A stretch of 63,753 bases of DNA, from the NCBI GenBank assembly GCA_028693395.1, contig JAQUVJ010000002.1, positions 1 to 63,753 on the forward strand. Reading direction: 5' to 3'. This DNA is from Candidatus Nanoarchaeia archaeon (GTDB lineage: Archaea; Nanobdellota; Nanobdellia; Woesearchaeales; JAQUVJ01). A program made the translations under genes and the position numbers. The notes beneath the pieces are model-generated. The model worked only from the letters and a program-made list of their open reading frames with translations. It was not told where the DNA came from and searched no databases. Numbering within the stretch: the first letter of the stretch is position 1; each line of letters starts with the position of its first letter. Shown piece after piece: positions 10,251 to 27,079 of this stretch.

Positions 10251-10280
10251 CTTCTTCCATTTTCACTATTTAATATATCC

Positions 10281-10309
10281 ATTATACACTATGTCATTAA
10301 ATAAGTCAA
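10281..10309 (-). promoter_or_regulatory. sigma70-type promoter for pnuC-nadR
   Basis: Minus strand TTGACT-17 nt-TATAAT. Confidence 0.65.
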
Positions 10310-10364
10310 TGGACAATATTAAACTAGCAATTCAAACAATATAAGAATTTTTAGAATATGATTA

Positions 10365-10436
10365 AAAACTATTCACCACCCGGGCCGACAGTACGAGAAT
10401 TATCTGATTATTAAAAAACTATTCACCACCCGGGCC
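10365..10436 (+). repeat. tandem 50-bp duplication carrying two CCACCCGGGCC boxes
   Basis: AAAAACTATTCACCACCCGGGCC at 10365-10386 and 10415-10436. Confidence 0.85.
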
Positions 10437-10786
10437 AGCTTGGATTTTTATACAGAATATTCAGATAATAAATTACAATCTATTTATGAAAATGATGGCG
10501 ACGGAAAGACCAAGGTATGGATTGAAACATCGTTGGAGATAGCTCTAGAATGGCTTGTATCACATTATCCGTATCGATAAGGTAGTTCGATATGCTTCAC
10601 TGGTCAAGAACGATTCTGGGTCATTTTAGAGGTATGCGACTGAAAATTCCATAAAATCATTTCTATCATCCTTATAAAGCTCATGTCGTCGGATATAGCT
10701 CTAAAATCAACGCAGAGCTATATCCAGATGAAAGGTAATCTGATACGTCCTAATACAAGAAAATCATTCTACAAGTGTTTTAGAAT
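10437..10786. other. G+C-enriched ORF-free element bracketed by inverted CCACCCGGGCC boxes
   Basis: Boxes 10426-10436 and 10787-10797 (inverted); internal GGATATAGCTCT/AGAGCTATATCC 12-bp inverted repeat (10691-10725) plus third copy GGAGATAGCTCT (10545-10556). Confidence 0.5.
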
Positions 10787-10802
10787 GGCCCGGGTGGATA
10801 TA

Positions 10803-10842
10803 TGAAAATAAGAAGAGAGCGGCTTTTAGGGCCGCTCTCTTC
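10803..10842 (-). terminator. intrinsic terminator of cassette 1
   Basis: 12-bp stem GAAGAGAGCGGC/GCCGCTCTCTTC then T-rich run on minus strand. Confidence 0.8.
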
Positions 10843-10853
10843 ATTCATATTAG

Positions 10854-11459
10854 TTAGTTTATTGAGAAAAGAATGTCAAATCCGAATCCTTTCAACATGT
10901 CCAGAATCTTAGTGTTGGCGGGAGCATACCAAGCCTTGTTTTCAGGACTATACTTTCTTATCGGAAGAGTTTTGACATTCTGAAGAGTCTCCCTGTCAAA
11001 AGAAAACTCTATTTTCAGATAATTCATGTCATCTTTAGCTGACCGAACAAGAGATACCTTTTTGAATACTTCTTTGACAACAGTCTTTCCATCCTCAACA
11101 ACCTTTTTGGAAAAATCAATTTCAGCAAAATTCTTTATAATGCTCTTGGGTATCCACTGATCGACTTTGACGGCTTCGACCTCATCCCTGATCGTCTTGA
11201 CTTGATCTTCGGTAAGAGTTTCAAGAATGACATCCCTTGTTACCCATGAACCCAAGCATTCCGGCCCAATTCCCAGAAGTTTTGATCCTGGGTGAGTGAG
11301 TTTCCGGCCGCATCTAGCACAACGACCATCTTTGGGAATGATACCATTTCCTTTGACATAAACGGCCTTGTCAGATTCTTTCGTTATAACGCCGTTGATG
11401 TTATAAGGTACGTTCATTGCCCGTGCGATCCTCGTGCTGATAACAAAAATTTGATTCAT
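10854..11459 (-). CDS. DUF6011-motif protein with HARP-like C-terminal region
   Basis: True start ATG 11459 after AAGGGGGA SD (track start 11549 translates the leader); CARCGRKLTHPGSKLLGIGPEC; C-terminal KIEFSFDRETLQNVKTLPIRKYSPENKAWYAP. Confidence 0.6.
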   Translation of the reverse strand: MNQIFVISTRIARAMNVPYNINGVITKESDKAVYVKGNGIIPKDGRCARCGRKLTHPGSKLLGIGPECLGSWVTRDVILETLTEDQVKTIRDEVEAVKVDQWIPKSIIKNFAEIDFSKKVVEDGKTVVKEVFKKVSLVRSAKDDMNYLKIEFSFDRETLQNVKTLPIRKYSPENKAWYAPANTKILDMLKGFGFDILFSIN

Positions 11460-11520
11460 ATTAAAATCCCCCTTGGTAGATTGATGTTTGGTCGGGATTG
11501 CTCTTCCAACCAACAAGGAT

Positions 11521-11549
11521 ATTCTATCACGTATCAATCGATCCGTCAA
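11521..11549 (-). promoter_or_regulatory. cassette promoter P1
   Basis: TTGACG-17 nt-TGA-TAGAAT; member of 15-copy family. Confidence 0.75.
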
Positions 11550-11635
11550 TAGGGAAATATGATGTTTATATTTTCAGATAACTATCAACCACCCGGGCCA
11601 ACTCGGATTTTTATATAGAATATTCAGATAATAAA

Positions 11636-11785
11636 TTACTTTTTCCCAAGTACATCTTTATTGAATTTAATAGCTTTTTTAGCAAGATCATAAGCGGCGG
11701 AGGTATTTTCACCAATTTCCATAAAAAAACTATGCATTCCCACTATGAACATAAACCATAGAACATATGTAATATATTCTCGCAT
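11636..11785 (-). CDS. small membrane protein, 49 aa
   Basis: GAAAGGTGAT RBS; MREYITYVLWFMFIVGMHSFF...; below track cutoff. Confidence 0.45.
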   Translation of the reverse strand: MREYITYVLWFMFIVGMHSFFMEIGENTSAAYDLAKKAIKFNKDVLGKK

Positions 11786-11852
11786 TAGATATCACCTTTC
11801 TAATTTTCATAATATAAAGAGGGGAGTTTTCAAGACTCACCTCTATCGGATT

Positions 11853-12167
11853 TTAGACTATGAAAGTAATTCTCAGAAATTTCAGTTTGGCTCCATCAGG
11901 AAGAGTAGTGCTACCCTCGGCCAGTCTTGGACCGGAATATTGAACCACGAAAAGAGTGTCGTCCATGTCCAGTGTTACCGACTCCCTGTTGAACGTGAAT
12001 CCTTCCCAGGAAGAGGCCAGAGAATCGGCCAGTTCCTTATGACCGATAACACTCTTCGGGCTATTTTTTATAATCTCTTCAAGAGTAACAGTTTCAACAC
12101 TCATGCCGTAGTTGTTTTCCGAAATCATATTGAGAGAAAAAGCGTTGGAAACGAGAGTCTTTGCCAT
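11853..12167 (-). CDS. DUF1874 / AcrIII-1-like viral ring nuclease (candidate anti-type III CRISPR)
   Basis: True start ATG 12167 after AAGGAGGA SD; MAKTLVSNAFSLNM..., VIGHKE (catalytic His context), VVQYSGPRLAEG match STIV B116 / SIRV1 gp29 family. Confidence 0.8.
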   Translation of the reverse strand: MAKTLVSNAFSLNMISENNYGMSVETVTLEEIIKNSPKSVIGHKELADSLASSWEGFTFNRESVTLDMDDTLFVVQYSGPRLAEGSTTLPDGAKLKFLRITFIV

Positions 12168-12237
12168 TGTGAAATCCTCCTTAGAAATTGTATTTTGTCG
12201 GTCGGGTCGCCTGTTCGCTCTTCCAACCAACAAGGAT

Positions 12238-12266
12238 ATTCTATCACGTATCAATCAATCCGTCAA
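12238..12266 (-). promoter_or_regulatory. cassette promoter P2
   Basis: TTGACG-17 nt-TGA-TAGAAT. Confidence 0.75.
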
Positions 12267-12482
12267 GCATTAAAATCGATTTTTTTGATGATTAAATTTT
12301 CAAACAACTCAACATCCTTTCAATTATATAGTCTGCATATCGGTGAAAAAATATTTTATAGATAATTCTGAATAATCTAACCATCGCCGCCCCGGGCCAA
12401 CTCGGATTTTTTTGCAGAATATTCGTATAGATTGAAAGCAATAAAAAAGACAACTCCTTTTAAGAGTTGTCTTTATATTCTA

Positions 12483-12647
12483 TTATATTTCAGTCAATTT
12501 CAGAATATGATCTTCCGGGTTCTCGTTCGGTGCAGTATATTTCAACCATTCAAAAAAGTCTATATCATCGCCGTCGATAATTCCGGTAATAACTTCGTCC
12601 ATATAAAGATCCAGAAAGGGGCCAAACTTTATTATAATCGTTGTCAT
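12483..12647 (-). CDS. acidic mini-protein, 54 aa
   Basis: AAGGGGGA SD; MTTIIIKFGPFLDLYMDEVITGIIDGDDIDFFEWLKYTAPNENPEDHILKLTEI; terminator AAGACAACTC/GAGTTGTCTT follows. Confidence 0.6.
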   Translation of the reverse strand: MTTIIIKFGPFLDLYMDEVITGIIDGDDIDFFEWLKYTAPNENPEDHILKLTEI

Positions 12648-12708
12648 TTAAAAATCCCCCTTAGATATTAGATGTTTGGTCGGGATCGCTCTTCCAACCA
12701 ACAAGGAT

Positions 12709-12737
12709 ATTCTATCACGTATCAATCAATCCGTCAA
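12709..12737 (-). promoter_or_regulatory. cassette promoter P3
   Basis: TTGACG-17 nt-TGA-TAGAAT. Confidence 0.75.
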
Positions 12738-12830
12738 GCATTAAAATCGATTTTTTCTATGATTAAATAGTTAGATAATAGCTAAAATCGTTATTGAAGT
12801 AACCTCGGAAAAAACCTATTTTAGAACACA

Positions 12831-13020
12831 ACCACGTAAAGTCTTGCAAACACTGGATTCTTAGATTTCTTGTGAATAAGATAACATATTTATAAAGCCT
12901 TGCAAACACTAGCTTTTTTATACACGATCACTAATCTCCTATGTGTCGCAACGAAAAATGGATAAATGGTATAAAGCTACACTTGCAATCTAAAACCGCG
13001 ACAGGATTGAAATTAGGAAT
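12831..13020 (+). ncRNA. hairpin element copy a (candidate structured RNA)
   Basis: Two CGTAAAGYCTTGCAAACACTRG motifs then GATCACTAATCTCC...GCGACAGG...AATTAGG hairpin; paralog of 15542-15780 and 17815-18055. Confidence 0.4.
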
Positions 13021-13192
13021 TGTATATATTATTATAAACAATGCGGCCAGGGTGGATAAAATTGTATATGCTTTTAAAACAATTATGATTATATGAAAAT
13101 GATTATAATTGATATATATTCTAAAAAAACGATTATCAACCACCCGGGCCAGCTTGGATTTTTTCACAGAATATTCATACAAATTGAAGATA

Positions 13193-13240
13193 ATAAAAAA
13201 AAGACTGTTTATTTTTCTCGAAATAAACAGTCTGAAAAAA
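13193..13240. terminator. bidirectional intrinsic terminator
   Basis: AGACTGTTTAT/ATAAACAGTCT 11-bp stem between A8 and A-run. Confidence 0.75.
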
Positions 13241-13243
13241 CTA

Positions 13244-13417
13244 TTAAATTGCATATGTCATTTTTTCGGAAATAAGATAACTTGTATTAATACCTGGATA
13301 ATAAAATTCCATCCATTCCAAAAAACTAAAAATAGTCTCATTATCTTCTACTTCTTGAAGCCAATCATGATAATAATAACTATCTTCAAGAATCTGATAT
13401 GAAGAAGAGCTAGGCAT
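13244..13417 (-). CDS. acidic aromatic-rich mini-protein, 57 aa
   Basis: GGGGGG SD overlapping end of upstream ORF; MPSSSSYQILEDSYYYHDWLQEVEDNETIFSFLEWMEFYYPG... Confidence 0.55.
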   Translation of the reverse strand: MPSSSSYQILEDSYYYHDWLQEVEDNETIFSFLEWMEFYYPGINTSYLISEKMTYAI

Positions 13418-13418
13418 A

Positions 13419-13727
13419 TTAAAAACCCCCCTTATAAAGATTAGTCAGATTATTTTCTACAATTCTCTTGAAACGTCTGGCGAGATTACGATTCGCCATA
13501 TAACGACGTTTCACGGGATTGACAGACTTCTCCAATTTTTCTCTCTTTTTGCCCGTCCAATCCTCAGGGCGAACAAACTCACGACGGACCTGATGATTAG
13601 TGAGTTTCTTGTAATAAGAATTGTCAGAAATATCGTCAGTATTCCGAACAATTTTTTTTGTATCAGCTTTCACTTCGATGCCCATTCCGTCCGTAAAAAT
13701 ATAGCTCTTTCGATAAGTATTTGCCAT
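13419..13727 (-). CDS. basic hypothetical protein, 102 aa
   Basis: AAGGAGGG SD, first gene of P4 cassette. Confidence 0.7.
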   Translation of the reverse strand: MANTYRKSYIFTDGMGIEVKADTKKIVRNTDDISDNSYYKKLTNHQVRREFVRPEDWTGKKREKLEKSVNPVKRRYMANRNLARRFKRIVENNLTNLYKGGF

Positions 13728-13799
13728 ATTAAAAACCCTCCTTGAAAGATAGATGTTTGGTCGGGAACGCTTGACTTCGCTCTTCCAACCAACAAGGAT

Positions 13800-13828
13800 A
13801 TTCTACCATGCTTTATCGAATCCGTCAA
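13800..13828 (-). promoter_or_regulatory. cassette promoter P4
   Basis: TTGACG-17 nt-TGG-TAGAAT. Confidence 0.75.
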
Positions 13829-13910
13829 TAGGGAAATATGATGATTAAATTTTCAGATAATTTATATTCTGGATATTATATTCTGTATTCTGTATTCTGT
13901 ATACACAAAC

Positions 13911-14123
13911 GCGGAATAAATAAATTTTTCTTTTTAGGAGTATTGTGCGGAAAATATAAATTTTTATTAGATGGAATATTGTGCGGAAAATAAATTTTTA
14001 TTAGATGGATATTATGCAAAATAAATGAATTTTTATTAGATGGATAATTTATGCGAAATAAATGAATTTTTATTAGATGGGTATTTATGCGAAAAATATA
14101 AATTTTCGTGTTAGAGGTATGAT
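13911..14123 (+). repeat. six tandem 33-37-bp iteron-like repeats
   Basis: GCGRAAAATAAATGAATTTTTATTAGATGGATAWTTAT units head to tail, no spacers. Confidence 0.85.
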
Positions 14124-14139
14124 TAAAAAGATTCTAATC

Positions 14140-14194
14140 TTTTGCGTAACGTAGTGAAGCAAAAGAGTTTTTGCGTAACGCAGTGAAGCAAAAA
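14140..14194 (+). repeat. two tandem hairpin repeats
   Basis: TTTTGCGTAACGYAGTGAAGCAAAA twice (TTTTGC/GCAAAA stems). Confidence 0.8.
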
Positions 14195-14217
14195 CCTGAT
14201 CGGCTAAAATATTTTTG

Positions 14218-14354
14218 GTCGGCGCAATATATTTTCCTCCAAACTCTTTTTTAACGACTTATATTTTTTCAAACTATTTATAATTATTCAAACTATTTAT
14301 AATTTTTAAAGGCTAAGTACTTTTAACTTTATCATCTTTTTCTATTTTTACTAA
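14218..14354 (+). repeat. long direct repeat, copy 1
   Basis: GTCGGCGCAATATATTTTCCTCCAAACTCTTTTTTAACGACTTATATTTTTT... about 90 percent identical to 14580-14696. Confidence 0.85.
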
Positions 14355-14431
14355 TTCGTCAATTCGTAATATAGTTCTTAGGAATCATCTTTTTCGGTTA
14401 AAAGATGAGTCTTAGGAATCATCTTTTAGAC

Positions 14432-14461
14432 TTGACAAACTATACTATAGTATGATATAAT
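14432..14461 (+). promoter_or_regulatory. near-consensus sigma70 promoter with no downstream ORF
   Basis: TTGACA (14432-14437)-18 nt-TGA-TATAAT (14456-14461), points into ORF-free repeat DNA. Confidence 0.6.
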
Positions 14462-14579
14462 AATTAAAAAAAAACTTTTATTTTAGGAATATTTTTAGAA
14501 ATGCATTCAGAAGGTATGATATGAAATTTTTATAATCGTTCTCAAAATATAAAAATTGCGTCGACCAAAAATTTATCCA

Positions 14580-14696
14580 GTCGGCGCAATATATTTTCCT
14601 CCAAACTCTTTTTTAACGACTTATATTTTTTAAACTATTTATAAAATTTTAAAGGCAAGTACTTTTAACTTTATCATCTTTTTCTATTTTCACTAA
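14580..14696 (+). repeat. long direct repeat, copy 2
   Basis: Paralog of 14218-14354; followed by AATTCCTAAGA/TCTTAGGAATT 11-bp hairpin. Confidence 0.85.
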
Positions 14697-14773
14697 ATTA
14701 TACATAATTCCTAAGATTCATTTTTATATGAGTCTTAGGAATTATTTTATGAACAAAAATATTTCAGAAAATT

Positions 14774-14932
14774 TTAGCTATTATCAATCATATCTTGAGT
14801 ATAAAATGTCTTGCTAGTTTCATAATCACATTCCATACAAAATACTTTGACTGTTATGGAATTTTCTTCAGGATTAGCACAATAATCAAAATCTGTTTCT
14901 TTTCCGCATACAGGACAAAAAACACTATTCAC
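14774..14932 (-). CDS. zinc-ribbon mini-protein, 52 aa
   Basis: GAAAGGAG RBS, GTG start; CPVC...CMEC. Confidence 0.5.
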   Translation of the reverse strand: MNSVFCPVCGKETDFDYCANPEENSITVKVFCMECDYETSKTFYTQDMIDNS

Positions 14933-14956
14933 TACACAACACTCCTTTCAAAATAT

Positions 14957-14988
14957 AAAGAGGGAATTTTTTAGATAATTCCCTCTTT
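14957..14988 (-). terminator. intrinsic terminator
   Basis: AAAGAGGGAATT/AATTCCCTCTTT 12-bp stem. Confidence 0.7.
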
Positions 14989-14999
14989 CATATAAATTT

Positions 15000-15368
15000 C
15001 TATTCCTTGTTCAGTTCAATAGAATTGTAAGTATTATTTATGTCATTCAGATATCGAAGAATATTTGTTGCTTCTTTTGTATTCTTCTTTGTATTAGCAT
15101 CCAAAATAACTATTGGTATCATAATATCATTCTGAGCAACAATTCCCATGTCCCAGAGAGTATAAAGAGTAGTCAATTCCGAACCGTAATTCATTGACCA
15201 CAAAACCCCTTCTATTTCCGAAAAATGAAATACGACTGGTGAGTTCTTGTTGTCCAAAACAAATCTTTCAAACTTCTTGTTAATTTTGCAATCCAAATCC
15301 GTTTTAATGTCACCCTTTTTAATCATACTAGCTAAAGTACCGATGTTTAGAACCTTCGTCTTCATCAT
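15000..15368 (-). CDS. hypothetical protein, 122 aa
   Basis: AAGGGGGA SD 9 nt before ATG; P5 cassette. Confidence 0.7.
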   Translation of the reverse strand: MMKTKVLNIGTLASMIKKGDIKTDLDCKINKKFERFVLDNKNSPVVFHFSEIEGVLWSMNYGSELTTLYTLWDMGIVAQNDIMIPIVILDANTKKNTKEATNILRYLNDINNTYNSIELNKE

Positions 15369-15435
15369 CTGTGAAAATCCCCCTTATAAAGATATTTTGT
15401 CAGTCGGATCGTTTACTCTTCCCTCCGACTGCTAT

Positions 15436-15464
15436 ATATTATCACGGTTTTTTCAATCCGTCAA
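15436..15464 (-). promoter_or_regulatory. cassette promoter P5 (variant)
   Basis: TTGACG-17 nt-TGA-TAATAT; leader hairpin CAGTCGGA/TCCGACTG. Confidence 0.7.
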
Positions 15465-15541
15465 GTAGTATTTTTCATGATTAAATATTCTGATAAATAA
15501 AAACGTCGTATTGACCAAGGAAAATCGTTAATTTTTCAATG

Positions 15542-15780
15542 ACCACGTAAAGCCTTGCAAATACTGGGTTTTTATATTTCTTGTGAATGAAATATCAAAC
15601 TCGTAAACTGTTGCTACGACTACATTTTTTCTATACGATCACTAATCTCTTCTGTATCGGTCTGTTTTTCCATAAAACAGTATAACTGCACACGTCTAAA
15701 ATTTTCATTGCGACACAGAGGAGATTAGTAATGTTTAGACCGCTCTAACATTTATAAACTGTTGATATTACTGGATTTTT
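15542..15780 (+). ncRNA. hairpin element copy b (candidate structured RNA)
   Basis: 15-bp stem ACTAATCTCTTCTGT (15641-15655) / ACAGAGGAGATTAGT (15715-15729) with one U-G pair valid only on plus-strand RNA; flanked by three TTGCAA-type 22-mers. Confidence 0.45.
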
Positions 15781-15875
15781 CAAGTCGATAAATTCTAAAA
15801 AACATCATGCTAAAAAATCTCATTGACCCCCTGGCCTTCCCGAAGAATGCAGAATATTCCGTCATGTAGAATATA

Positions 15876-15912
15876 ATAAAAAAGACGGCTCTTTTATGGG
15901 AGTCGTCTTTAT
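15876..15912 (-). terminator. intrinsic terminator
   Basis: AAGACGGCTC/GAGTCGTCTT stem with flanking A/T runs. Confidence 0.65.
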
Positions 15913-15920
15913 ATTTTTAA

Positions 15921-16325: not shown

Positions 16326-16400
16326 CACCATTACCTCCTTGAATTTTAATTTCTTTTCAATTTCTTTATGATTATATCTTATCATAAAGAAATTCGTTTG

Positions 16401-16718: not shown

Positions 16719-16770
16719 TCAGAAATCCCCCTCTATTTTGTTTTCAAGTGTCTTCCGAACCAACAAGGAT

Positions 16771-21220: not shown

Positions 21221-21245
21221 AGAGCGGGTTTTGGGGACCCGCTCT
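21221..21245. terminator. intrinsic terminator (family copy 1 of 3)
   Basis: AGAGCGGGT/ACCCGCTCT stem, A5/T5 flanks; same hairpin at 22727-22751 and 25994-26018. Confidence 0.8.
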
Positions 21246-21291
21246 TTTTCTATCGTATATTATTTAGATTTAGATTTCAAAATTCTCTCCT

Positions 21292-21465
21292 TTATATTGA
21301 TGAACTGATTTCTTGTTTTACTTTTTCGTTAGAGTAGAACTGGCTCTTTATTTCTATATGATTGCAATTTTTATTCATACATATTTTTTTGTATGTAAAC
21401 TTATCTACTTTCTCCAGAATGGAATAGTCCATATTACTTTGACATGATGGGCATCTAAAAATCAT
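21292..21465 (-). CDS. zinc-ribbon mini-protein, 57 aa
   Basis: AAGGAGGAG RBS; MIFRCPSCQSN...CMNKNC; distal gene of hicA-like cassette. Confidence 0.55.
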   Translation of the reverse strand: MIFRCPSCQSNMDYSILEKVDKFTYKKICMNKNCNHIEIKSQFYSNEKVKQEISSSI

Positions 21466-21556
21466 TATTCTATCTCCTCCTTATATGTAAAACGATAAAA
21501 TCTATAAACTCTTCCAATGACATTTCCTGTATTTGTTTCTTAGTCATAATCATATC

Positions 21557-21778
21557 TTATTTATAGACCGCTTCAAACTCCTTCATATTAATTCCATTTT
21601 CTTTGAGAATCCGGCGAAGAAGTGTAGTCTTTACTTCGCCGCTTCTGGGAAATACAACCATTTTTGATGGATCGTATGTTTTTTTCATTTTTTGATGTCC
21701 GGTCCCTCCATTGTCGACATATCCGAGTTTTTCAAAAGCTTTTTTTACTCTGTCGCCGCGATAATCAAAACGTGCCAT
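21557..21778 (-). CDS. hicA: HicA-like mRNA interferase toxin, copy 1 (no HicB seen)
   Basis: 73 aa; KLGY..NGGTGHQKM...VVFPRSGEVKTTLLRRILKENGI fits HicA pattern (G.GSxH...P.H...l...l+.Ilkq.Gi). Confidence 0.7.
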   Translation of the reverse strand: MARFDYRGDRVKKAFEKLGYVDNGGTGHQKMKKTYDPSKMVVFPRSGEVKTTLLRRILKENGINMKEFEAVYK

Positions 21779-21833
21779 CTATATTACCCCCTCAAGATTT
21801 TATGTGTTGGTCGTTCTATCAACCAACAAGGAT

Positions 21834-21862
21834 AGTATATCACACTCTCGTCAATCCGTCAA
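21834..21862 (-). promoter_or_regulatory. cassette promoter P9
   Basis: TTGACG-17 nt-TGA-TATACT. Confidence 0.75.
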
Positions 21863-21967
21863 GAGCTTTTCTAAAGAATTTATTTTCAAAAAACTTTTCT
21901 TGTTTATACACTCATCATCATCAATTATATAGACTGTATATCGGTGAAAAAAAGTTATTTAATTATT

Positions 21968-22007
21968 GAAAAAGGGATGAATTTATTAAAAACTCATCCC
22001 TTTTTTT
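21968..22007. terminator. intrinsic terminator
   Basis: AAAGGGATGA/TCATCCCTTT stem then T7. Confidence 0.75.
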
Positions 22008-22013
22008 GATTAT

Positions 22014-22604
22014 TTATTCCATATAAACACTACCATCTTCGTAAAATTCAAACCCATTTTTATCCAAATATTTTATCAAATAAGAATCTGATGATTTATC
22101 TTTATATTTTTCTTTTAGAATGTCACCTACTACTAAAGTATAATAATGAAACAGTGAAAGAACTGCATTGACGAATTCATTTACATCATTTTCTATTGTA
22201 TATATATCTGCTTCTTCAAGAAGAATTTTAAAATTTCCAAGAGTTTCATACAACATAAAACTTCTTGAAGTGATAATAATATCAAAATCTTTAAATGCTC
22301 CTTCATAAAAATACCTTTTCATTTTATCTTTAATTCTAGCATGATCATTTGAAAGAATTTTCATTGCATCGGAAGCTTTAATTCTTCCATTAAAAGAGCA
22401 ATATGAAAGACTTTTTTTGTCCATAGTAAAAAATACATCTGCAATATGAACAACACTAGGAATATATGTAAGGGCGTGTTTTATATCCTCATTATCCAAT
22501 TCAATAGAATCAACACCGTATTTTTTAAATGTTTCAATCGCATAATTCTTTGCTTCGTCGGAAAGTTCATTGATGGTATACAGATCTAAAGTGATAGTTC
22601 TCAT
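22014..22604 (-). CDS. hypothetical protein, 196 aa
   Basis: GAGGAGG SD; P10 cassette; N-terminal LYTINELSDEAKNYAIE and C-terminal FEFYEDGSVY recall plasmid/phage accessory proteins, family not identified. Confidence 0.7.
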   Translation of the reverse strand: MRTITLDLYTINELSDEAKNYAIETFKKYGVDSIELDNEDIKHALTYIPSVVHIADVFFTMDKKSLSYCSFNGRIKASDAMKILSNDHARIKDKMKRYFYEGAFKDFDIIITSRSFMLYETLGNFKILLEEADIYTIENDVNEFVNAVLSLFHYYTLVVGDILKEKYKDKSSDSYLIKYLDKNGFEFYEDGSVYME

Positions 22605-22659
22605 TGTATTACCTCCTCAAAATTTTTATATGCTGGCCGTTTTATCAACCAACAAGGAT

Positions 22660-22688
22660 AGTATATCACACTCTCGTCAATCCGTCAA
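22660..22688 (-). promoter_or_regulatory. cassette promoter P10
   Basis: TTGACG-17 nt-TGA-TATACT. Confidence 0.75.
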
Positions 22689-22726
22689 GAACTTTTTTAA
22701 AGAATTTATTTTCAGATAATAAAAAA

Positions 22727-22751
22727 AGAGCGGGTTTTGGGGACCTGCTCT
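22727..22751. terminator. intrinsic terminator (family copy 2)
   Basis: AGAGCGGGT/ACCTGCTCT stem with A7/T5 flanks. Confidence 0.75.
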
Positions 22752-22827
22752 TTTTCACTATTCTTTTACAAAATCTTCAACAATTTCACAATTAATTTGT
22801 TTAAATTGATTAAAATGTACCATAAAT

Positions 22828-23001
22828 TCATCTATAGCTTTTAAAGTGTAAGGGATCATAACGATATCCCATATCTTTTGCTTTTTTTAAAACTTCTTGA
22901 ATTTTTTCATTATACTCTATCATAAAGGCTAACGAGCCTCTATAAATACAATCTTTTTGATATTCATTTAAATTTTGAAGATCAAGAATTTTATCACCCA
23001 T
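22828..23001 (-). CDS. hypothetical mini-protein, 57 aa
   Basis: ATG 23001 abuts upstream stop (TAAATG); a 33-aa ORF overlaps its 3' end out of frame, so a frameshifted longer gene is possible. Confidence 0.4.
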   Translation of the reverse strand: MGDKILDLQNLNEYQKDCIYRGSLAFMIEYNEKIQEVLKKAKDMGYRYDPLHFKSYR

Positions 23002-23289
23002 TTAATTTTTCTCCTTTTTTATTTGAATAAATTTTTCTAATTCTTTAATTTTTTCATATCGTTCTGTACATGTAGTCATTAGTTTCATTATTTCAGATTC
23101 CAAGAATTTTACTCGATTATTTAAAGTTTTAATTTCTTCATCTTTAATGTCTAGAATATTCTCCCATTGTCTATTATTATCGCTCTTATCTTTTTCCGTT
23201 TTTTCTTTCATTTCCATCATATTTATAGACATTTTTTGAATAAGATAATACATCGCCTTATCTTCTCTTCGCATTTCCATTATCATCAA
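23002..23289 (-). CDS. coiled-coil hypothetical protein
   Basis: 95-aa ORF. Confidence 0.6.
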   Translation of the reverse strand: MMIMEMRREDKAMYYLIQKMSINMMEMKEKTEKDKSDNNRQWENILDIKDEEIKTLNNRVKFLESEIMKLMTTCTERYEKIKELEKFIQIKKEKN

Positions 23290-23295
23290 TCCTTT

Positions 23296-23541
23296 CTATC
23301 TATTTGTAATTGTTTCAGCAAGAATTTCTGTTATTTTCCCATCACTACGTAATACACGAATATGTATCTGATTATCATGTATTACTTCGCCTTTAATGAT
23401 ATATTTTGTTTTACTGATATTCCCTTCTTCTCTGAAATTGAATTCTACTTCCATTTCACCACCTTTTGTTCTCGGCCCCGTTGCTTTTACTTCGTTACCA
23501 TCAATAAAAAGTTTTGTCCAGAAATTTCTAACAAATTTCAT
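23296..23541 (-). CDS. hypothetical protein
   Basis: 81-aa ORF, AAGGAGGA-type RBS. Confidence 0.65.
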   Translation of the reverse strand: MKFVRNFWTKLFIDGNEVKATGPRTKGGEMEVEFNFREEGNISKTKYIIKGEVIHDNQIHIRVLRSDGKITEILAETITNR

Positions 23542-23555
23542 AATTTTAGTCCTCC

Positions 23556-23870
23556 TTAGATATAATTTCCTATTTCAGATATAGACAGAATAAAATTTCT
23601 TGCCATTGTAATATTTTTAAAAAATATATTTTCTTTTATCATTTTATTATTCTTATCGTAAAAAGAGATATAGAAACCAAGTCCATCTTTAATAATCTGA
23701 AAAGTTCCATCGTGGGTTTTTTGTATATCAGTATATCCACAAGAAAGACCGTAGTTGCTTATGAAAATTCTACCATTTTTCTTTATATAAAATTTTCTAA
23801 TCATCTCATCTGACATTTTAGAACGGTCAATTTTAAAAGCATCTTCTGTAGAACGATTATTATAGCTCAT
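23556..23870 (-). CDS. hypothetical protein, 104 aa
   Basis: True start ATG 23870 after GAGAGGAG; P11 cassette. Confidence 0.65.
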   Translation of the reverse strand: MSYNNRSTEDAFKIDRSKMSDEMIRKFYIKKNGRIFISNYGLSCGYTDIQKTHDGTFQIIKDGLGFYISFYDKNNKMIKENIFFKNITMARNFILSISEIGNYI

Positions 23871-23895
23871 TTCTTCATCTCCTCTCAATGCAAGT

Positions 23896-23924
23896 AGTAT
23901 ACCATGTTTTCGTCAATACGTCAA
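23896..23924 (-). promoter_or_regulatory. cassette promoter P11
   Basis: TTGACG-17 nt-TGG-TATACT; overlaps 3' end of 23921..24388. Confidence 0.7.
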
Positions 23925-24388
23925 GCAGTTATTTTAAAATCTTTATTTTCAGATAATAAATTAGCTATATGATTTCTGTTATGTCCAAAATCAAAATCAA
24001 TGTCTCTTACATTTAATCCAAAACTTTGTATATTGTATTCTGTATACACTTCAACGTTTCCTTGAAAATTTTTATCATAAAAAAGATTTCCAATTTTAAT
24101 CATTCCATGAAATGACCAAGGAACTTCATGTCTAAAAGTAATAATTGTTTTTGCGTCTAGATTATTTTTTCTTGCAATTTTTTTCATAATAGCAGCATTT
24201 TCAAGACAACTCCAATATTTGGAGTTTATGCATTCATTAAAAGGACGGATATCATTTACTTTATTTTTAAAAATTTCCGGGCAATATACATTTATTTTTT
24301 TTCCATTTTGTGTTATTCCCCAATTAAGAAAAGCATTATTGAATAATTCGGAAATTTCATATTTAAAATTTTCTATACGATACATCAT
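23921..24388 (-). CDS. hypothetical protein (possible Cys-His-Asp papain-like fold)
   Basis: 155 aa; YWSCLENAAIM ... FHGMIKIG ... D; fold assignment is speculative. Confidence 0.55.
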   Translation of the reverse strand: MMYRIENFKYEISELFNNAFLNWGITQNGKKINVYCPEIFKNKVNDIRPFNECINSKYWSCLENAAIMKKIARKNNLDAKTIITFRHEVPWSFHGMIKIGNLFYDKNFQGNVEVYTEYNIQSFGLNVRDIDFDFGHNRNHIANLLSENKDFKITA

Positions 24389-24390
24389 TT

Positions 24391-24702
24391 TTATACAGCA
24401 ATTTTCTTATTTAAATTAAAAAGAATGTTATTTATATCAATTTTTTCTCCAATTTCATAAACATTATAGAAAATACAAGGGAATGTGAATTTATCATTAT
24501 ATTCATCTGCTTTTAATTGATATATAAATATATTAGTTTTTCGTATTTCTTTATTGCCATGTTTATTTTCTATAAATTTAATAAAATCACAAACATCATC
24601 CAATTCATCAAACTCGCATATAAATTGCCTTTGTTCTTTAAATATTTTATTTTCACTTATAATTACAAAAATTTCAGCTTTATATTTTGCATAAATTGTC
24701 AT
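24391..24702 (-). CDS. hypothetical protein
   Basis: 103-aa ORF. Confidence 0.6.
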   Translation of the reverse strand: MTIYAKYKAEIFVIISENKIFKEQRQFICEFDELDDVCDFIKFIENKHGNKEIRKTNIFIYQLKADEYNDKFTFPCIFYNVYEIGEKIDINNILFNLNKKIAV

Positions 24703-24709
24703 AATTTTA

Positions 24710-24967
24710 TCACCCTTCTATAAAATATAGTTGAGCTTTTTGTTCACCTGTATATCTATGATTATCAATAATTTTCAGAAGATAATAGCCGCCTGTATGA
24801 ATAGCGTCATATTCTTTAAAATCAATATTTTTTCCACGCCATGGGTTATTATTTAATCTTTCAAAATCTTCTATATAAAGTCTACCATTGCCATGTCTAA
24901 TATAAGCACGTCCTTGAGGTGTATGTGAAATTTTTGAGACTTTTCTAAATTTTTTAATATTCATCAT
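24710..24967 (-). CDS. hypothetical protein
   Basis: 85-aa ORF abutting neighbours. Confidence 0.6.
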   Translation of the reverse strand: MMNIKKFRKVSKISHTPQGRAYIRHGNGRLYIEDFERLNNNPWRGKNIDFKEYDAIHTGGYYLLKIIDNHRYTGEQKAQLYFIEG

Positions 24968-25300
24968 TTATCTTCCTTTCATATTAGTATATTCAAAATC
25001 ATCCAATAATACTCGTTCTTCACAACTGTATATATTATTACCATTAACAACAATCATATCATCCCTAGGTATATCCATCATATAAATTTCAAAATCTTCA
25101 TATGTATCGTCATTTAATATATTCACTATTTTTAGAGATAATCTACCATCAAATAAAATTGATTTTTCAGCATATATATATTCTGAGTTATATTTATCAT
25201 CAAATGAATTTATAATAAAATCTACACATTCATCAACATTATAACCATTCCATCGAAGAACTTGAATTGTTGTATTTTTAGGAACCATTGTCATTATCAT
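24968..25300 (-). CDS. hypothetical protein
   Basis: 110-aa ORF; AGAGGTG RBS. Confidence 0.6.
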   Translation of the reverse strand: MIMTMVPKNTTIQVLRWNGYNVDECVDFIINSFDDKYNSEYIYAEKSILFDGRLSLKIVNILNDDTYEDFEIYMMDIPRDDMIVVNGNNIYSCEERVLLDDFEYTNMKGR

Positions 25301-25326
25301 AAAAACACCTCTTTATTTTAAAATAG

Positions 25327-25358
25327 TATAGGGGGTTATATTATTTCAACCCCCTATA
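25327..25358 (-). terminator. terminator-like hairpin after ardA-like gene
   Basis: TATAGGGGG/CCCCCTATA stem. Confidence 0.6.
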
Positions 25359-25368
25359 TATAGTGTAA

Positions 25369-25872
25369 TTAAAATATTCTTATAACGTGACCATTTTCAG
25401 TTTCAATATATCCATCATGACCTAAATCTTTGCCTATTGCTTCATAATCAATATAACATTTTAGATTATCTGATACTTCACCAAACAATCCTTCATCGAC
25501 TAATTCTTCAGCAACTTCTTCCAAATCTGAATTAGCATAGAATTCATAATCACCATCATCATAAATTGCAAGTGCTGTATTCCAATCTTTTTCAACTTCA
25601 TATATTGCTTCAAGTCTATCTATCTCATCATTATCATCAATATTAGCAACACTTTCAAAAAAATTATTCAACTTTTCCAAATCTGTATCTTCTGTAATTT
25701 CATAATCATCAAGTTCAATTTCAGAATCTACGATAACAGCAGTAGTAACATCTTCGCATCCAAGAGTTTCAAGAGCTTCTTCCAATTCTGAATCTAAAAA
25801 AGGAAGATCCAACCAAATAATATTATCCTCAGTACGCTTATACATATTTGTCAAGGCTATTCTATTATTCAT
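25369..25872 (-). CDS. ardA: ArdA-like antirestriction protein (DNA mimic)
   Basis: True start ATG 25872 after GAGGAGG; highly acidic; C-terminal CYIDYEAIGKDLGHDGYIETENGHVIRIF matches ArdA YfDYEafaRDL...G..f motif. Confidence 0.7.
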   Translation of the reverse strand: MNNRIALTNMYKRTEDNIIWLDLPFLDSELEEALETLGCEDVTTAVIVDSEIELDDYEITEDTDLEKLNNFFESVANIDDNDEIDRLEAIYEVEKDWNTALAIYDDGDYEFYANSDLEEVAEELVDEGLFGEVSDNLKCYIDYEAIGKDLGHDGYIETENGHVIRIF

Positions 25873-25927
25873 AAATGTTACCTCCTCTAGATTTTGTGTG
25901 CCGGTCGTTTTATCAACCAACAAGGAT

Positions 25928-25956
25928 AGTATATCACATTCTCGTCAATCCGTCAA
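25928..25956 (-). promoter_or_regulatory. cassette promoter P12
   Basis: TTGACG-17 nt-TGA-TATACT. Confidence 0.75.
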
Positions 25957-25993
25957 GAACTTTTTTAAAGAATTTATTTTCAGATAATAAAAA

Positions 25994-26018
25994 AGAGCGG
26001 GTTTTGGAGACCCGCTCT
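25994..26018. terminator. intrinsic terminator (family copy 3)
   Basis: AGAGCGGGT/ACCCGCTCT stem, A/T flanks. Confidence 0.8.
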
Positions 26019-26026
26019 TTTTTTTG

Positions 26027-26248
26027 TTATTTATAGACCGCTTCAAACTCCTTCATACTAATTCCGTTTTCTCGAAGAATTCGGCGAAGAAGTGTTGTCT
26101 TTACTTCGCCGCTTCTGGGAAATACGACCATCTTACTTGGATCGTCGACTTTCTTCATTTTCTGATGCCCGGTCCCGCCATTATCTGAGTATCCGAGTTT
26201 TTCAAAAGCTTTCTTCACCCTATCTCCGCGATAATCAAAACGTGACAT
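26027..26248 (-). CDS. hicA: HicA-like mRNA interferase toxin, copy 2
   Basis: 73 aa, 7 substitutions versus 21557..21778; own promoter and terminator. Confidence 0.7.
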   Translation of the reverse strand: MSRFDYRGDRVKKAFEKLGYSDNGGTGHQKMKKVDDPSKMVVFPRSGEVKTTLLRRILRENGISMKEFEAVYK

Positions 26249-26306
26249 TTTTTATGCCCTCCTTAGAAATTAGTTTTTGTCGGTCGTCATTCTGTCCGAC
26301 TGCTAT

Positions 26307-26335
26307 ATAATATCATACTCTTATCAATCCGTCAA
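26307..26335 (-). promoter_or_regulatory. cassette promoter P13 (variant)
   Basis: TTGACG-17 nt-TGA-TATTAT; leader hairpin GTCGG/CCGAC. Confidence 0.7.
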
Positions 26336-26338
26336 GTA

Positions 26339-26710
26339 TCATTTAAATTTTGTCGGATTAGCAAAATAAAACCGATTGAAAATTTCCTCTTTAATATAAT
26401 TTCTCAAAAAATATTTATCAGCTAAATAGTTAGAATATTTTCCATTGATATAAACTGTCAACTCCTTATTTTTATTTGATGGTATATCTTTCCACAAATA
26501 AGCTGTAAAATCTACCCATCCACAATAATAACCATTTTCATCCATACAATGAAAGGAGCTTCTAATTTCAAAATTTTTCTTTTGTTCAGTAATTTCATGT
26601 TTAATGTCAAAGCCAGAACCATGAGGCAGACAGAAATCAAGAAATTCAATCTTGGTATCTGCATCCATATTTTTAATTGCATTGTATATATGTTTTAATT
26701 CTTTTGACAT
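26339..26710 (-). CDS. hypothetical protein, 123 aa
   Basis: AAAGGAG RBS then ATG 26710 (track start 26719 abuts the SD). Confidence 0.65.
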   Translation of the reverse strand: MSKELKHIYNAIKNMDADTKIEFLDFCLPHGSGFDIKHEITEQKKNFEIRSSFHCMDENGYYCGWVDFTAYLWKDIPSNKNKELTVYINGKYSNYLADKYFLRNYIKEEIFNRFYFANPTKFK

Positions 26711-26741
26711 ATTTACCATCTCCTTTTTAGTTGATAAAATG

Positions 26742-26770
26742 ATTATACCATAAATTTATCAATCCGTCAA
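26742..26770 (-). promoter_or_regulatory. cassette promoter P14
   Basis: TTGACG-17 nt-TGG-TATAAT. Confidence 0.75.
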
Positions 26771-26777
26771 GTAGCTT

Positions 26778-26975
26778 TTAATCCAAATACATTTTAATTT
26801 CTTCCATATCTTTGTTCATTATATAATTTCGTATCGACACCATAACGCCAATCCTAGTTCTATTCATATTTTTATCATTTTCATGTTTAAAAGGCAATTC
26901 ATTTTCTTTTAAAAGAGAATTGATCATTTTATCTATTATCTTCGCAATATGCATTTCAGCTTTTGTCATTTTCAA
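26778..26975 (-). CDS. hypothetical protein, 65 aa
   Basis: AAGGAGGAG SD 6 nt before TTG start. Confidence 0.55.
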   Translation of the reverse strand: MKMTKAEMHIAKIIDKMINSLLKENELPFKHENDKNMNRTRIGVMVSIRNYIMNKDMEEIKMYLD

Positions 26976-27008
26976 TTTTATCTCCTCCTTTATTTTTGAA
27001 ACACCATC

Positions 27009-27037
27009 ATGTTATCATAAATTCGTCAATCTGTCAA
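27009..27037 (-). promoter_or_regulatory. cassette promoter P15 (outermost)
   Basis: TTGACA-17 nt-TGA-TAACAT. Confidence 0.6.
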
Positions 27038-27079
27038 TAGAAAAATTGTAGGGATTATCTTATCCCTACAATTAATTTT

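Follow-up and report, generated by a model that had tools for sequence, protein, structure and literature searches.

The DNA window analyzed here is the whole 63,753-nucleotide (nt) stretch of contig JAQUVJ010000002.1 (positions 1 to 63,753, forward strand; GenBank assembly GCA_028693395.1), deposited under Candidatus Nanoarchaeia archaeon. It contains, at 10260-27060, an array of small open reading frames (ORFs) arranged in short minus-strand cassettes, each of which is headed by its own promoter. The array is bounded upstream by the intrinsic terminator that closes a DNA ligase operon (minus strand, 27044-27073) and downstream by a minus-strand promoter, P0 (10281-10309; TTGACT, 17 nt, TATAAT), for pnuC (9378-10250) and a nadR-like gene (8270-9391). 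Judging from sequence comparison, the window probably derives from a large lytic phage distantly related to SPO1 and the Herelleviridae, in which the array would represent a cluster of early host-takeover and counter-defense genes, built of ~17 short operons that reuse one promoter-leader module. An initial annotation of this DNA had described an array of self-promoted cassettes on paralogous promoter modules, a description borne out by the promoters, the module alignments and the terminators presented below.

Promoters and leader RNAs

Direct reading of the minus strand revealed TTGAC(G/A), a 17-nt spacer and TGnTAnnnT at all 15 positions where the initial annotation had placed a promoter. 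Numbered from low to high coordinates, these are P1 (11521-11549), P2 (12238-12266), P3 (12709-12737), P4 (13800-13828), P5 (15436-15464; TGATAATAT), P6 (16771-16799; TAGAAT), P7 (17364-17392), P8 (20208-20236), P9 (21834-21862), P10 (22660-22688), P11 (23896-23924; TTGACGTATTGA, TGGTATACT), P12 (25928-25956), P13 (26307-26335; TGATATTAT), P14 (26742-26770; TTGACGGATTGA, 17 nt, TGGTATAAT) and P15 (27009-27037; TTGACAGATTGA, 17 nt, TGATAACAT). The total of 15 did not hold, as two further minus-strand promoters, one for the AT-hook gene inside cassette 6 (16376-16404, a match to the search pattern) and one for a tRNA-Leu gene (18682-18710; TTGACATCTT, 17 nt, TGGTATTAT), bring the number inside the array to 17, one for every 1-5 genes. 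Across the window, the regular expression TTGAC-N14-16-TGnTAnnnT has 25 matches versus 0.8 expected from shuffled sequences. By sequence alone, the array promoters agree with the consensus at 10-11 of 12 positions and have the 17-nt spacer and the TG extension. The extended -35 context TTGACGGATTGA is exact in 10 of the 15 promoters and has a single difference in the remaining five, the -10 hexamer is TAGAAT in eight and TATACT in four, and an A/T-rich tract (for example, TTTAAAAAAGTTC in the subfamily termed C below) precedes the -35 element; four promoters share a 32-nt upstream tract, TTATCTGAAAATATAAACATCATATTTCCCTA. The common -35 context, AT-rich tract, leader and G-rich Shine-Dalgarno sequence of the initial annotation were all seen when the 15 modules were read.

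The transcribed leader is of the ATCCTTGTTGGTT type in 10 of the 15 modules and of the CAGTCGGA type in two, and G-rich Shine-Dalgarno sequences occur throughout. Ten of the 15 leaders (those of P1-P5, P7, P9, P10, P12 and P13) are predicted to fold into a hairpin of 9-11 bp starting from about +5, with energies of -9 to -18 kcal/mol; the P12 hairpin is formed by ATCCTTGTTGGTTG and that of P5 by CAGTCGGA/TCCGACTG, the P13 hairpin being of the same CAGTCGGA type. P11 and P15 have short leaders and P8 a truncated one, all without the hairpin, and no conserved hairpin is predicted for the P6 leader, which begins ATCCTTGTTGGTTC. Within the UUGGUUGG/CCGACCAA type, variation of the 3′ arm is limited to A-to-G substitutions, which convert U-A pairs to U-G and are thus compatible with pairing on the sense transcript only. 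In the CAGUCGG/CCGACUG type (P5 and P13), this stem recurs with a single fully compensatory G-C to A-U exchange and with two wobble pairs converted to Watson-Crick pairs, and the two promoters of a relative's fragment described below (L084) differ by a compensatory pair, CAGUCG/CGACUG versus CAGUCA/UGACUG. Since these compensatory and wobble changes preserve the hairpin, the leader structure appears to be under selection. Most likely, by analogy with Bacillus subtilis, the hairpin and the very strong Shine-Dalgarno sequence serve as a 5′ mRNA stabilizer and translation enhancer; a 5′ stem-loop together with ribosome binding is said, in the title of a 2002 study by Hambraeus, to stabilize the B. 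subtilis aprE leader mRNA, and work by Hue in 1995 reportedly described stabilizers of the stem-loop/strong ribosome-binding-site kind in the same organism (both cited in PMC3997798).

Conservation that extends beyond the promoter hexamers could also mean that the shared sequences are mainly operators, and that a phage or host regulator acting on the GGATTGA spacer, the TTATCTGAAAAT tract or the leader hairpin shuts off the early regulon as a whole, much as happens in SPO1 gp44/50/51 shut-off or T4 RegB cleavage. This explanation, which is compatible with the host-takeover role proposed here, is the most serious of the alternatives and yet in our view unlikely. It would accommodate the covariation that preserves the hairpin, the excess of TTATCTGAAWAT (28 occurrences versus 7.4 expected; of 12 exact copies, all but one fall in the array or right next to it) and the palindrome CAGAATATTCTG, which recurs at cassette boundaries and is also present in L084. 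However, no regulator was identified, and the motif matches are weak ones in a genome of ~26% G+C. In particular, reading the TTATCTGAAAAT tract as a CodY box is a weak idea: CodY-box-like matches number 81 versus 43 expected, yet they carry 1-3 mismatches against that same A/T-rich background.

Paralogous promoter-leader modules

Local alignment of all promoter neighborhoods revealed homology tracts of 110-150 nt with 85-94% identity, which begin between -26 and -67, at the upstream terminator or in the AT-rich tract, and end no more than a few bases from the start codon of the cargo gene. For example, P10 and P12 align from -67 to +80 with 94% identity (ATG at +84), P1 and P4 from -32 to +93 with 93% identity (ATG at +90), and P2 and P3 from -31 to +100 with 90% identity. 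The ORFs downstream of the homologous modules are unrelated, two HicA genes being the sole paralogous pair among the 28 cargo ORFs. At 25870-26022 and 22602-22755, a terminator and a promoter module together form one repeated unit.

Segment-wise identity matrices of the -30 to -1 tract define three groups, namely A (P1, P4, P7 and P8, the four promoters with TTATCTGAAAATATAAACATCATATTTCCCTA; TAGAAT), B (P2 and P3, whose cores are 100% identical) and C (P9, P10 and P12; TATACT). P1 is a mosaic, as its upstream tract belongs to group A whereas its 29-nt core clusters with group B at 96%. All three groups have the same or nearly the same first 15 transcribed bases, which are found in 10 of the 15 leaders. 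Spacers are 96-100% identical within subfamilies, although the spacer sequence of sigma-70-type promoters is not constrained. The retention of non-optimal -10 hexamers and of near-identical spacers within subfamilies thus suggests common descent and gene conversion rather than convergence on an optimum, and points to the modules being paralogues. A larger unit of promoter plus HicA gene is likewise duplicated: P9 and P13 are homologous from -1 to +247 with 83% DNA identity, the homology starting exactly at the -35 element and the upstream contexts differing. The initial annotation had described a shared unit that is long, falls into subfamilies and alternates with non-coding elements; the tracts aligned here measure 110-150 nt and form the groups A to C, and the alignment breakpoints fall at the start codon and at the upstream terminator or AT tract.

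Outside the array, a second pair of paralogous promoter modules (41258-41346 and 42477-42565) flanks a 213-amino acid (aa) ORF; 78 of 89 bases are common to the two and the 29-nt core, TTGACAAAACGATTTCAATGTGTTAAAAT, is identical, suggesting that module reuse is a genome-wide habit. Another case of paralogous early-promoter modules was noticed in an unrelated IMG/VR sequence of ~40% G+C (UViG_3300025066_001357, positions 3027-6842), where eight same-strand TTGAC-17-TGnTAnnnT promoters lie within 3.8 kb, of which three have the same 45-nt tract in front.

The G+C content of the array had been described as higher than that of its flanks. It is indeed raised to 0.33-0.37 at 10-13 kb and 15-17 kb versus 0.22-0.28 in the flanks, but unevenly so along the array. 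The G+C content of third codon positions (GC3) is 0.26-0.47 for the cargo at 10854-21778, with values of 0.47 for the DUF1874/AcrIII-1-like gene and 0.42 for the DUF6011 gene, and 0.11-0.23 for the cargo at 22014-25872, which resembles the core genes (0.09-0.20); cassette 12, at 0.11-0.13, is native-like. This split suggests that the cassettes have mixed origins or different histories and, along with the duplicated unit of promoter and HicA gene, supports recombinational turnover.

Relatives were sought in INPHARED, IMG/VR, JGI metagenomes, GTDB genomes and protein collections, and none assembled across the array was found in any of them. Megablast against INPHARED gave no match; searches of IMG/VR with the promoter pattern and the ligase returned nothing but one unrelated phage, and two further motif scans of IMG/VR returned nothing; the promoter pattern had single matches only in GTDB genomes. 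Leader-pattern matches in JGI metagenomes (25, all single) were judged to be chance, none having TTGAC at promoter spacing. Exact-protein look-ups for two cargo proteins found them not on record. Three fragments nevertheless represent close relatives. L053 is an identical 4-kb Logan contig that ends at the HicA/terminator repeat, and the contig of the closest relative, L080, stops 350 nt after the ligase; these ends at or just before the array suggest that the repeated modules break short-read assemblies. L083 (1.3 kb), one of two relative fragments that span a cassette boundary, encodes a J-domain protein 66% identical to that of the window and keeps the terminator, TTGGCCCGGGTGG and the GGCCCGGGTGG box discussed below while its flanks diverge. 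At positions 1-110 of L083, a homologue of the 78-aa ORF at 19942-20178 is fused in frame to a terminase-large-subunit-like sequence, ...ILVNTRWAEDDISGKLL..., reflecting either a chimeric assembly or a different neighbor in that phage. L084 encodes a DUF1874 protein 77% identical to that of the window, driven by a module with a CAGTCG-type leader in place of the ATCCTTGTTGG type; both of its promoters carry the CAGTCG-type leader and are close paralogues, and it has a boundary repeat of its own. Concerted evolution of the modules within each genome would be expected to leave such a pattern, but at that divergence it is no proof of swapping. Among more distant relatives identified through the ligase, L081 has consensus promoters and shares no modules with the array. 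The idea that the array was inserted between the ligase and nadR found no support, as the 383-aa AAA_33 protein that follows the ligase in L085 is not a NadR orthologue.

The modules might, on the other hand, have no recombinational role, their likeness resulting from selection on a promoter/leader/Shine-Dalgarno optimum or from ancient tandem duplication in a region of fixed gene order. Every shared element (UP-like tract, -35, extended -10, 5′ hairpin and Shine-Dalgarno sequence) does have a plausible function in expression, SPO1 promoters are comparably similar to one another on average, and no relative shows a rearrangement. Against this stand the identity of unconstrained spacer positions and the non-optimal hexamers retained by subfamilies, the mosaic combinations of upstream tracts and cores, the presence of highly similar modules on unrelated ORFs with identity that ends at the ATG, the duplication of the HicA unit into a different upstream context, and the heterogeneous GC3. 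In addition, the two L084 promoters are alike, while the one that drives its AcrIII-1 homologue differs from P2 of the window, as concerted evolution predicts. We therefore regard a fixed, non-recombining array as improbable.

Terminators and cassette boundaries

Intrinsic terminators follow 13 of the 17 cassette ends that were checked, and none follows the ends at 26778, 26339, 23921 or 11636, so that the claim that each cassette is closed by a terminator holds for most of the array and fails at four ends. One terminator hairpin, AGAGCGGGT/ACCCGCTCT, occurs in three copies as the initial annotation had reported, which we located on the minus strand at 25987-26022 (abutting the P12 module), 22720-22755 (abutting the P10 module) and 21214-21249. 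Further minus-strand terminators lie after the ArdA ORF of cassette 12 (25327-25358) and in cassettes 10 (~21968-22005), 8 (19058-19091), 7 (16905-16938), 6 (15881-15910), 5 (14957-14988, between its two ORFs), 4 (13202-13233), 3 (12446-12474) and 1 (10812-10842).

A GC-rich 11-mer, the GGCCCGGGTGG box, is present in 11 copies versus 0.3 expected, nine on the minus strand (10376, 10426, 11589, 12388, 13140, 16849, 18090, 18791 and 19011) and two on the plus strand (10787 and 13045). All fall within 10.4-19.0 kb, the cassettes at 21-27 kb having none, and most are found 45-120 nt ahead of the following promoter, directly behind a terminator and a GAATATTC palindrome. A role of the box as an RNA hairpin or terminator was rejected, since neither strand has a significant fold (z ~ -0.5).

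The initial annotation had called the array integron-like and had noted that no recombinase was visible in it. An integron consists of an IntI integrase, an attI site and promoterless attC cassettes that are expressed from the Pc promoter. The array resembles it as a one-directional run of small accessory genes of heterogeneous composition, whereas its cassettes are self-promoted, quite unlike those of an integron, and are mostly closed by a terminator. No attI or attC-like site was found at the array boundaries, where the repeats are terminators, GAATATTC palindromes and GGCCCGGGTGG boxes. Pfam and PHROG scans for recombinases covered the 28 cargo ORFs and 40 others (38 of at least 150 aa and two just upstream of P15; five ORFs of at least 150 aa outside the array were left out), and apart from a UvsX/RecA-like protein (46877-48049) no integrase or tyrosine/serine recombinase was detected among them; the array itself thus indeed lacks a visible one. 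Given the self-promoted cassettes and the lack of an integrase among the scanned ORFs and of attC sites, the integron reading was rejected. Site-specific, integron-like capture of cassettes by an undiscovered recombinase acting on a boundary element such as the GGCCCGGGTGG box or the GAATATTC palindrome is hardly credible, for although the boxes are overrepresented, lie mostly at boundaries and are kept in L083 amid diverged flanks, and although the cargo is compositionally mixed, no such enzyme was seen in the scanned ORFs, the cassettes are all self-promoted, and the boxes occur in one part of the array only, form no attC-like imperfect inverted repeats and are replaced by a different boundary repeat in L084.

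Cassette cargo

The 28 cargo ORFs, all on the minus strand, were defined by a Shine-Dalgarno sequence and a start codon and were matched against Pfam, PHROGs and PDB. The cargo named in the initial annotation (AcrIII-1-like, ArdA-like, two HicA-like, J-domain, AT-hook and DUF6011 proteins, acidic mini-proteins and a tRNA) was confirmed; ArdA, both HicA copies, AT-hook and DUF6011 score above the Pfam threshold, and 18 of the 28 ORFs match no Pfam or PHROG family.

Two proteins are recognizable as anti-defense factors. The first gene of cassette 12 (25369-25872) encodes a highly acidic ArdA-like protein of 167 aa (D+E 0.29 versus K+R 0.05) that matches PF07275 (E = 3.9e-12; 47.5 bits versus a cut-off of 27) as well as the anti-restriction family phrog_2059. 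The 104-aa product of ORF 11853-12167 in cassette 2 is, on sequence grounds, a DUF1874/AcrIII-1 homologue and putative ring nuclease. As a single sequence it scores 19.8 bits against PF08960, under the 26-bit cut-off, but all but one of its 33 homologues contain the domain, and a profile built from 16 homologues matches the structures of AFV3-109, SIRV1-114, 6scf and STIV B116 (2j6b, 2x4i, 6scf and 2j85) at 3e-11 to 6e-8. The Gly42-His43 pair does not vary across the alignment, His43 being what we take to be the AcrIII-1 catalytic residue. "Counter-defense" is an apt description of these two genes, and for the island as a whole it is shown only in part.

The HicA domain (PF07927) is present in the 73-aa proteins of cassettes 13 (26027-26248; GTGH motif) and 9 (21557-21778), which share 92% aa identity and score 30.2 and 31.6 bits versus a cut-off of 27. 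Pfam and PHROG scans of the cargo detected no HicB-like partner for either, suggesting orphan toxin-like genes. In cassette 9 a Cys-rich, zinc-ribbon-like ORF (21292-21465, 57 aa) follows. Cassette 8 encodes a 78-aa protein (19942-20178) and a 281-aa J-domain protein (19100-19945) with a weak Pfam match (E = 2e-3), an HPD motif (HHPDRGG) and a single homologue among 5.8 billion proteins. Cassette 6 carries a 105-aa ORF (16401-16718; phrog_9817) and a 134-aa AT-hook protein with PRGRPRK repeats (15921-16325), and the tRNA-Leu gene (anticodon taa) lies at 18548-18634 on the minus strand.

The remaining cargo is mostly anonymous. Cassettes 15 (26778-26975, 65 aa, with no terminator and a stop codon 8 nt before the P14 -35 element), 14 (26339-26710, 123 aa) and 7 (16945-17298, 117 aa) each consist of one ORF, none of the three proteins matching a family. 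Cassette 12 as a whole (23921-25872) comprises the ArdA-like gene, a terminator and then four ORFs (24968-25300, 110 aa; 24710-24967, 85 aa; 24391-24702, 103 aa; 23921-24388, 155 aa) that have no consensus promoter of their own, and cassette 11 also has four (23556-23870, 104 aa; 23296-23541, 81 aa, phrog_37977; 23002-23286, 94 aa; 22828-23001, 57 aa). The 196-aa protein of cassette 10 (22014-22604) matches phrog_10310 at its N-terminus and shows weak 39-aa C-terminal similarity to SPO1 gp53. Cassette 5 encodes proteins of 122 aa (15000-15368) and 52 aa (14774-14932, zinc-ribbon-like), cassette 4 a basic one of 102 aa (13419-13727) and an acidic one of 57 aa (13244-13417), cassette 3 an acidic one of 54 aa (12483-12647; D+E 0.22, K+R 0.05), cassette 2 additionally a hydrophobic one of 49 aa (11636-11785), and cassette 1 the DUF6011 protein of 201 aa (10854-11459). 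Several of these mini-proteins are strongly acidic.

Non-coding elements

Non-coding DNA makes up 46% of the island and holds conserved repeat families. An element of ~300 nt occurs three times on the minus strand (12780-13125, 15490-15790 and 17760-18075), and each copy contains a long hairpin of ~110 nt (12918-13040, -27 kcal/mol, z = -3.0; 15628-15745, -38 kcal/mol, z = -5.3, with ~21 of 23 bp paired in the stem; 17897-18015, -35 kcal/mol, z = -4.9). The 3′ arm of this hairpin, ACAnArGAGATTAGTGATC, is invariant, is present in L084 too, is followed by CCAGTGTTTGCAAGGCTTTAC boxes and resembles an extended Shine-Dalgarno sequence (AGGAG...GTGATC). In the early RNA of phage SP82, a polypurine stabilizer comes after an RNase III site, and it is a speculation that the ~300-nt element might act in a similar way.

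Two larger blocks are rich in repeats. The first (13830-14770) contains a 36-nt × 5.5 tandem array (13911-14106), the geometry of which is that of the ToxI antitoxin RNA of type III toxin-antitoxin systems, and two copies of a ~130-nt unit (14220-14354 and 14580-14696). Within it lies a plus-strand promoter of perfect consensus (14432-14461; TTGACA, 18 nt, TGATATAAT) that points opposite to all cassettes; the ~120-nt non-coding stretch that follows (~14468-14590), up to a strong hairpin at ~14555-14590, is structured (z = -3.7) and is a candidate antisense or independent small RNA (sRNA). The second block (20240-21210) contains ~20 GCTCTA-type iterons of 12/24 nt (20724-20991), a 32-nt × 2.2 repeat with the palindrome TGCAACAGTGTTGCA (20487-20558, with more copies nearby) and a 24-nt × 3.3 repeat, AACTTTTCCCTGATAGGTACTTAA (20279-20350). 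These blocks may be origin-like or, by analogy with the 35-bp repeat of Kayvirus, may mark a terminal-repeat boundary; DnaA boxes are not enriched in them (29 versus 25 expected). The two blocks have no sequence in common, which ruled them out as bracketing repeats of each other. A scan of 9500-28500 against Rfam (E <= 1) returned the tRNA only, with no match to ToxI or another sRNA; matches to the L20 and Thr leaders were rejected as terminators that score below threshold. That the non-coding families are functional RNA or DNA devices undescribed for phage early regions is a rather unlikely proposition; such devices could be RNase III-processed stabilizer or decoy RNAs, repeat RNAs that act as pseudo-antitoxins like those of type III toxin-antitoxin systems, or Chi-like sites guarding the entering DNA end.

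Comparison with SPO1 and PeSL cassettes

The host-takeover genes of SPO1 are small, early and highly expressed from strong promoters and ribosome-binding sites (PMC6873191, PMC10531801). This module is the closest precedent for the array and was missed in the initial annotation. When SPO1 bases 1-14500 were analyzed with the same scans as the window, 12 promoters of the form TTGAC(A/T), 17 nt, TGn-NATAAT were found, with a common upstream tract (...AAAAAGTnc), leader hairpins such as CAGGCGGGGGCAACCCCGCTCAG and ribosome-binding sites ACCAAGATTGTAAAAGGAGAGGTT. The SPO1 module comprises ~25 small, mostly ORFan early genes in about a dozen short operons and in this resembles the array; in both, an operon has a sigma-A-type promoter that is strong by sequence, an A-rich tract before it, a hairpin in the leader, a very strong Shine-Dalgarno sequence and intrinsic terminators. 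Mean pairwise promoter identity is 0.67 in SPO1 and 0.74 in the window for the core, and 0.47 and 0.45, respectively, for -30 to -1; the array modules are more uniform than those of SPO1 in the first 15 leader nt. In contrast to the array, SPO1 has cassettes on both strands and a coding fraction of ~77% (estimated from the coordinates of coding sequences, versus 54%); the array is further set apart by its recognizable anti-defense genes, ArdA and the AcrIII-1 homologue. In Kayvirus, the equivalent genes lie in long terminal repeats, adjoined by a tandem repeat of 35-bp units at the end of the unit genome (PMC6445280); its likeness to the internal 36-nt × 5.5 array is suggestive only.

The promoter early stem-loop (PeSL) elements of T4-type phages are composite cassettes of a strong early promoter and a stem-loop, which lie upstream of ORFans and drive modular shuffling by homologous recombination (PMC2839356, PMC4122927). 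They are the closest evolutionary analogue of the modules, and the analogy drawn in the initial annotation is apt, given homology tracts that run from the terminator or AT tract to the start codon. PeSLs and array modules both combine an AT-rich tract, a strong sigma-70-like early promoter, a stem-loop/terminator and a Shine-Dalgarno sequence, are present in many copies before ORFans in a hyperplastic region, have homology limited by the end of the upstream gene and the downstream start codon, and are plausible substrates for homologous recombination. However, the unit of the array is longer (110-150 nt) and has a conserved transcribed 5′ hairpin apart from the terminator, and PeSLs belong to T4-like phages of Gram-negative bacteria whereas the array belongs to a Firmicute SPO1-like phage, making it an analogue and not a member of the described set. 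Replacements with breakpoints in the cassettes and mini-circles pertain to the T4-type system; for the array, the mosaic modules, the duplicated promoter-HicA unit and the heterogeneous GC3 lend such exchange indirect support.

The array further resembles phage anti-defense clusters (Acr, Ard and Ocr type) in carrying ArdA and the DUF1874/AcrIII-1 homologue in early-type cassettes, with Tad3-like, NAD (nicotinamide adenine dinucleotide)-salvage, Dam-type methylase and RNA ligase genes nearby in the window, and differs from them in the 18 of 28 cargo proteins that have no recognizable function.

Phage, host and genomic context

The assignment to a phage distantly SPO1-like is drawn from the ligase adjoining the array, whose best full-length matches are in the SPO1 group (~29% identity), and from the recombinase, which matches those of Bacillus, Staphylococcus and Listeria myoviruses. 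The N-terminal S-layer-homology (SLH) domain of a 484-aa protein (39372-40826) points to an S-layer on the host, and one fragment from a relative had been placed in the bin of a Clostridia metagenome-assembled genome; together these suggest a Clostridia-like host, probably a low-GC Firmicute belonging to the Clostridia. The extended motif TTGACGGATTG, N9, TGRTANNNTAT was found in five rrn operons of Tepidibacter mesophilus, 150-250 nt 5′ of 16S rRNA, and upstream of 16S in one locus of Bacillus sp. FJAT-29937. The phage early promoters thus resemble the rrn promoters of some Clostridia and Bacilli, which may be a clue to the host lineage, though the search pattern itself forced the match.

The rest of the window has an accessory and anti-defense flavor, with WGR-PARP, Dam methylase, Rnl1, Rnl2, Tad3-like, nicotinamidase, NAMPT, NadE, NadR and PnuC proteins. 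The NAD gene set comprises the NadR-like and PnuC genes (8270-10250) at the array edge and, within 54020-58631, genes for a Tad3-like protein (54020-54811), an isochorismatase/nicotinamidase, a phosphoribosyltransferase-like protein, NAMPT (56393-57886) and NAD synthase (57888-58631), and is consistent with reconstitution of NAD against NAD-depleting defenses. A protein with WGR and PARP catalytic domains (29658-30845; Pfam 2e-19) is encoded upstream of the DNA ligase, with one 180-aa ORF between them; PHROGs labels its family merely "polymerase".

Proposed function and evolution of the array

We propose that, upon entry of the phage DNA, host sigma-A RNA polymerase would fire at the ~17 strong promoters (UP-like tract, TTGACG, 17-nt spacer and TGn-extended -10). 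Each transcript would open with the conserved leader, whose hairpin (10 of 15) would stabilize the mRNA and aid translation, and strong intrinsic terminators would insulate most cassettes from one another. Predicted products include the ArdA DNA mimic, directed against type I restriction, and the DUF1874/AcrIII-1-type ring nuclease, directed against cyclic-oligoadenylate signaling, in addition to the two orphan HicA RNases, the J-domain co-chaperone, the AT-hook DNA binder, small acidic proteins, tRNA-Leu and many ORFans. The 110-150-nt terminator/promoter/leader modules may have been spread and homogenized by homologous recombination or gene conversion (the phage encodes a UvsX-like recombinase), and may double as portable expression units and as PeSL-like crossover points for the gain, loss and duplication of cassettes; recombination would be homologous and not site-specific.

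Several observations weigh against this proposal. Promoter activity and early timing are inferred from sequence and the precedent of SPO1, whose module lies in the long terminal redundancy. No PHROG family is common to the cargo and the ten SPO1 host-takeover proteins scanned, and BLASTP of the 28 cargo proteins against 29 SPO1 terminal-redundancy proteins (gp35.1-gp60 and gp0.11) returned only the cassette 10 protein (c22014) versus gp53 (17 of 39 aa; E = 1e-4, pairwise), so that the likeness to SPO1 is architectural and not one of gene descent. Only two of the 28 cargo proteins are recognizable anti-defense genes. Protein is encoded by only 54% of 10260-27060, which a plain early-gene cluster leaves unexplained, and a number of the conserved non-coding repeats fit no role that could be assigned to them. 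The close relatives are fragments of 1.3-4 kb only (L053, L083 and L084), and the distant ligase relatives L080, L081 and L085 have no array beside the ligase. Even so, an early host-takeover and counter-defense cluster that is built on recombining promoter-leader modules remains the probable explanation.

The layout of portable promoter cassettes is known from SPO1 and, as a driver of shuffling, from the PeSLs of T4-type phages, and is encountered here in a deeply divergent, uncultivated Firmicute phage with unusually uniform modules, a structured 5′ leader in them, heterogeneous cargo and unexplained non-coding repeat families. Because such arrays break short-read assemblies, long reads are needed to follow their turnover. 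As candidate parts for strong expression, the modules may be of use in low-GC Gram-positive bacteria, and the 28 putative early proteins constitute a compact candidate set for host-takeover and anti-defense screens in Clostridia-like hosts.

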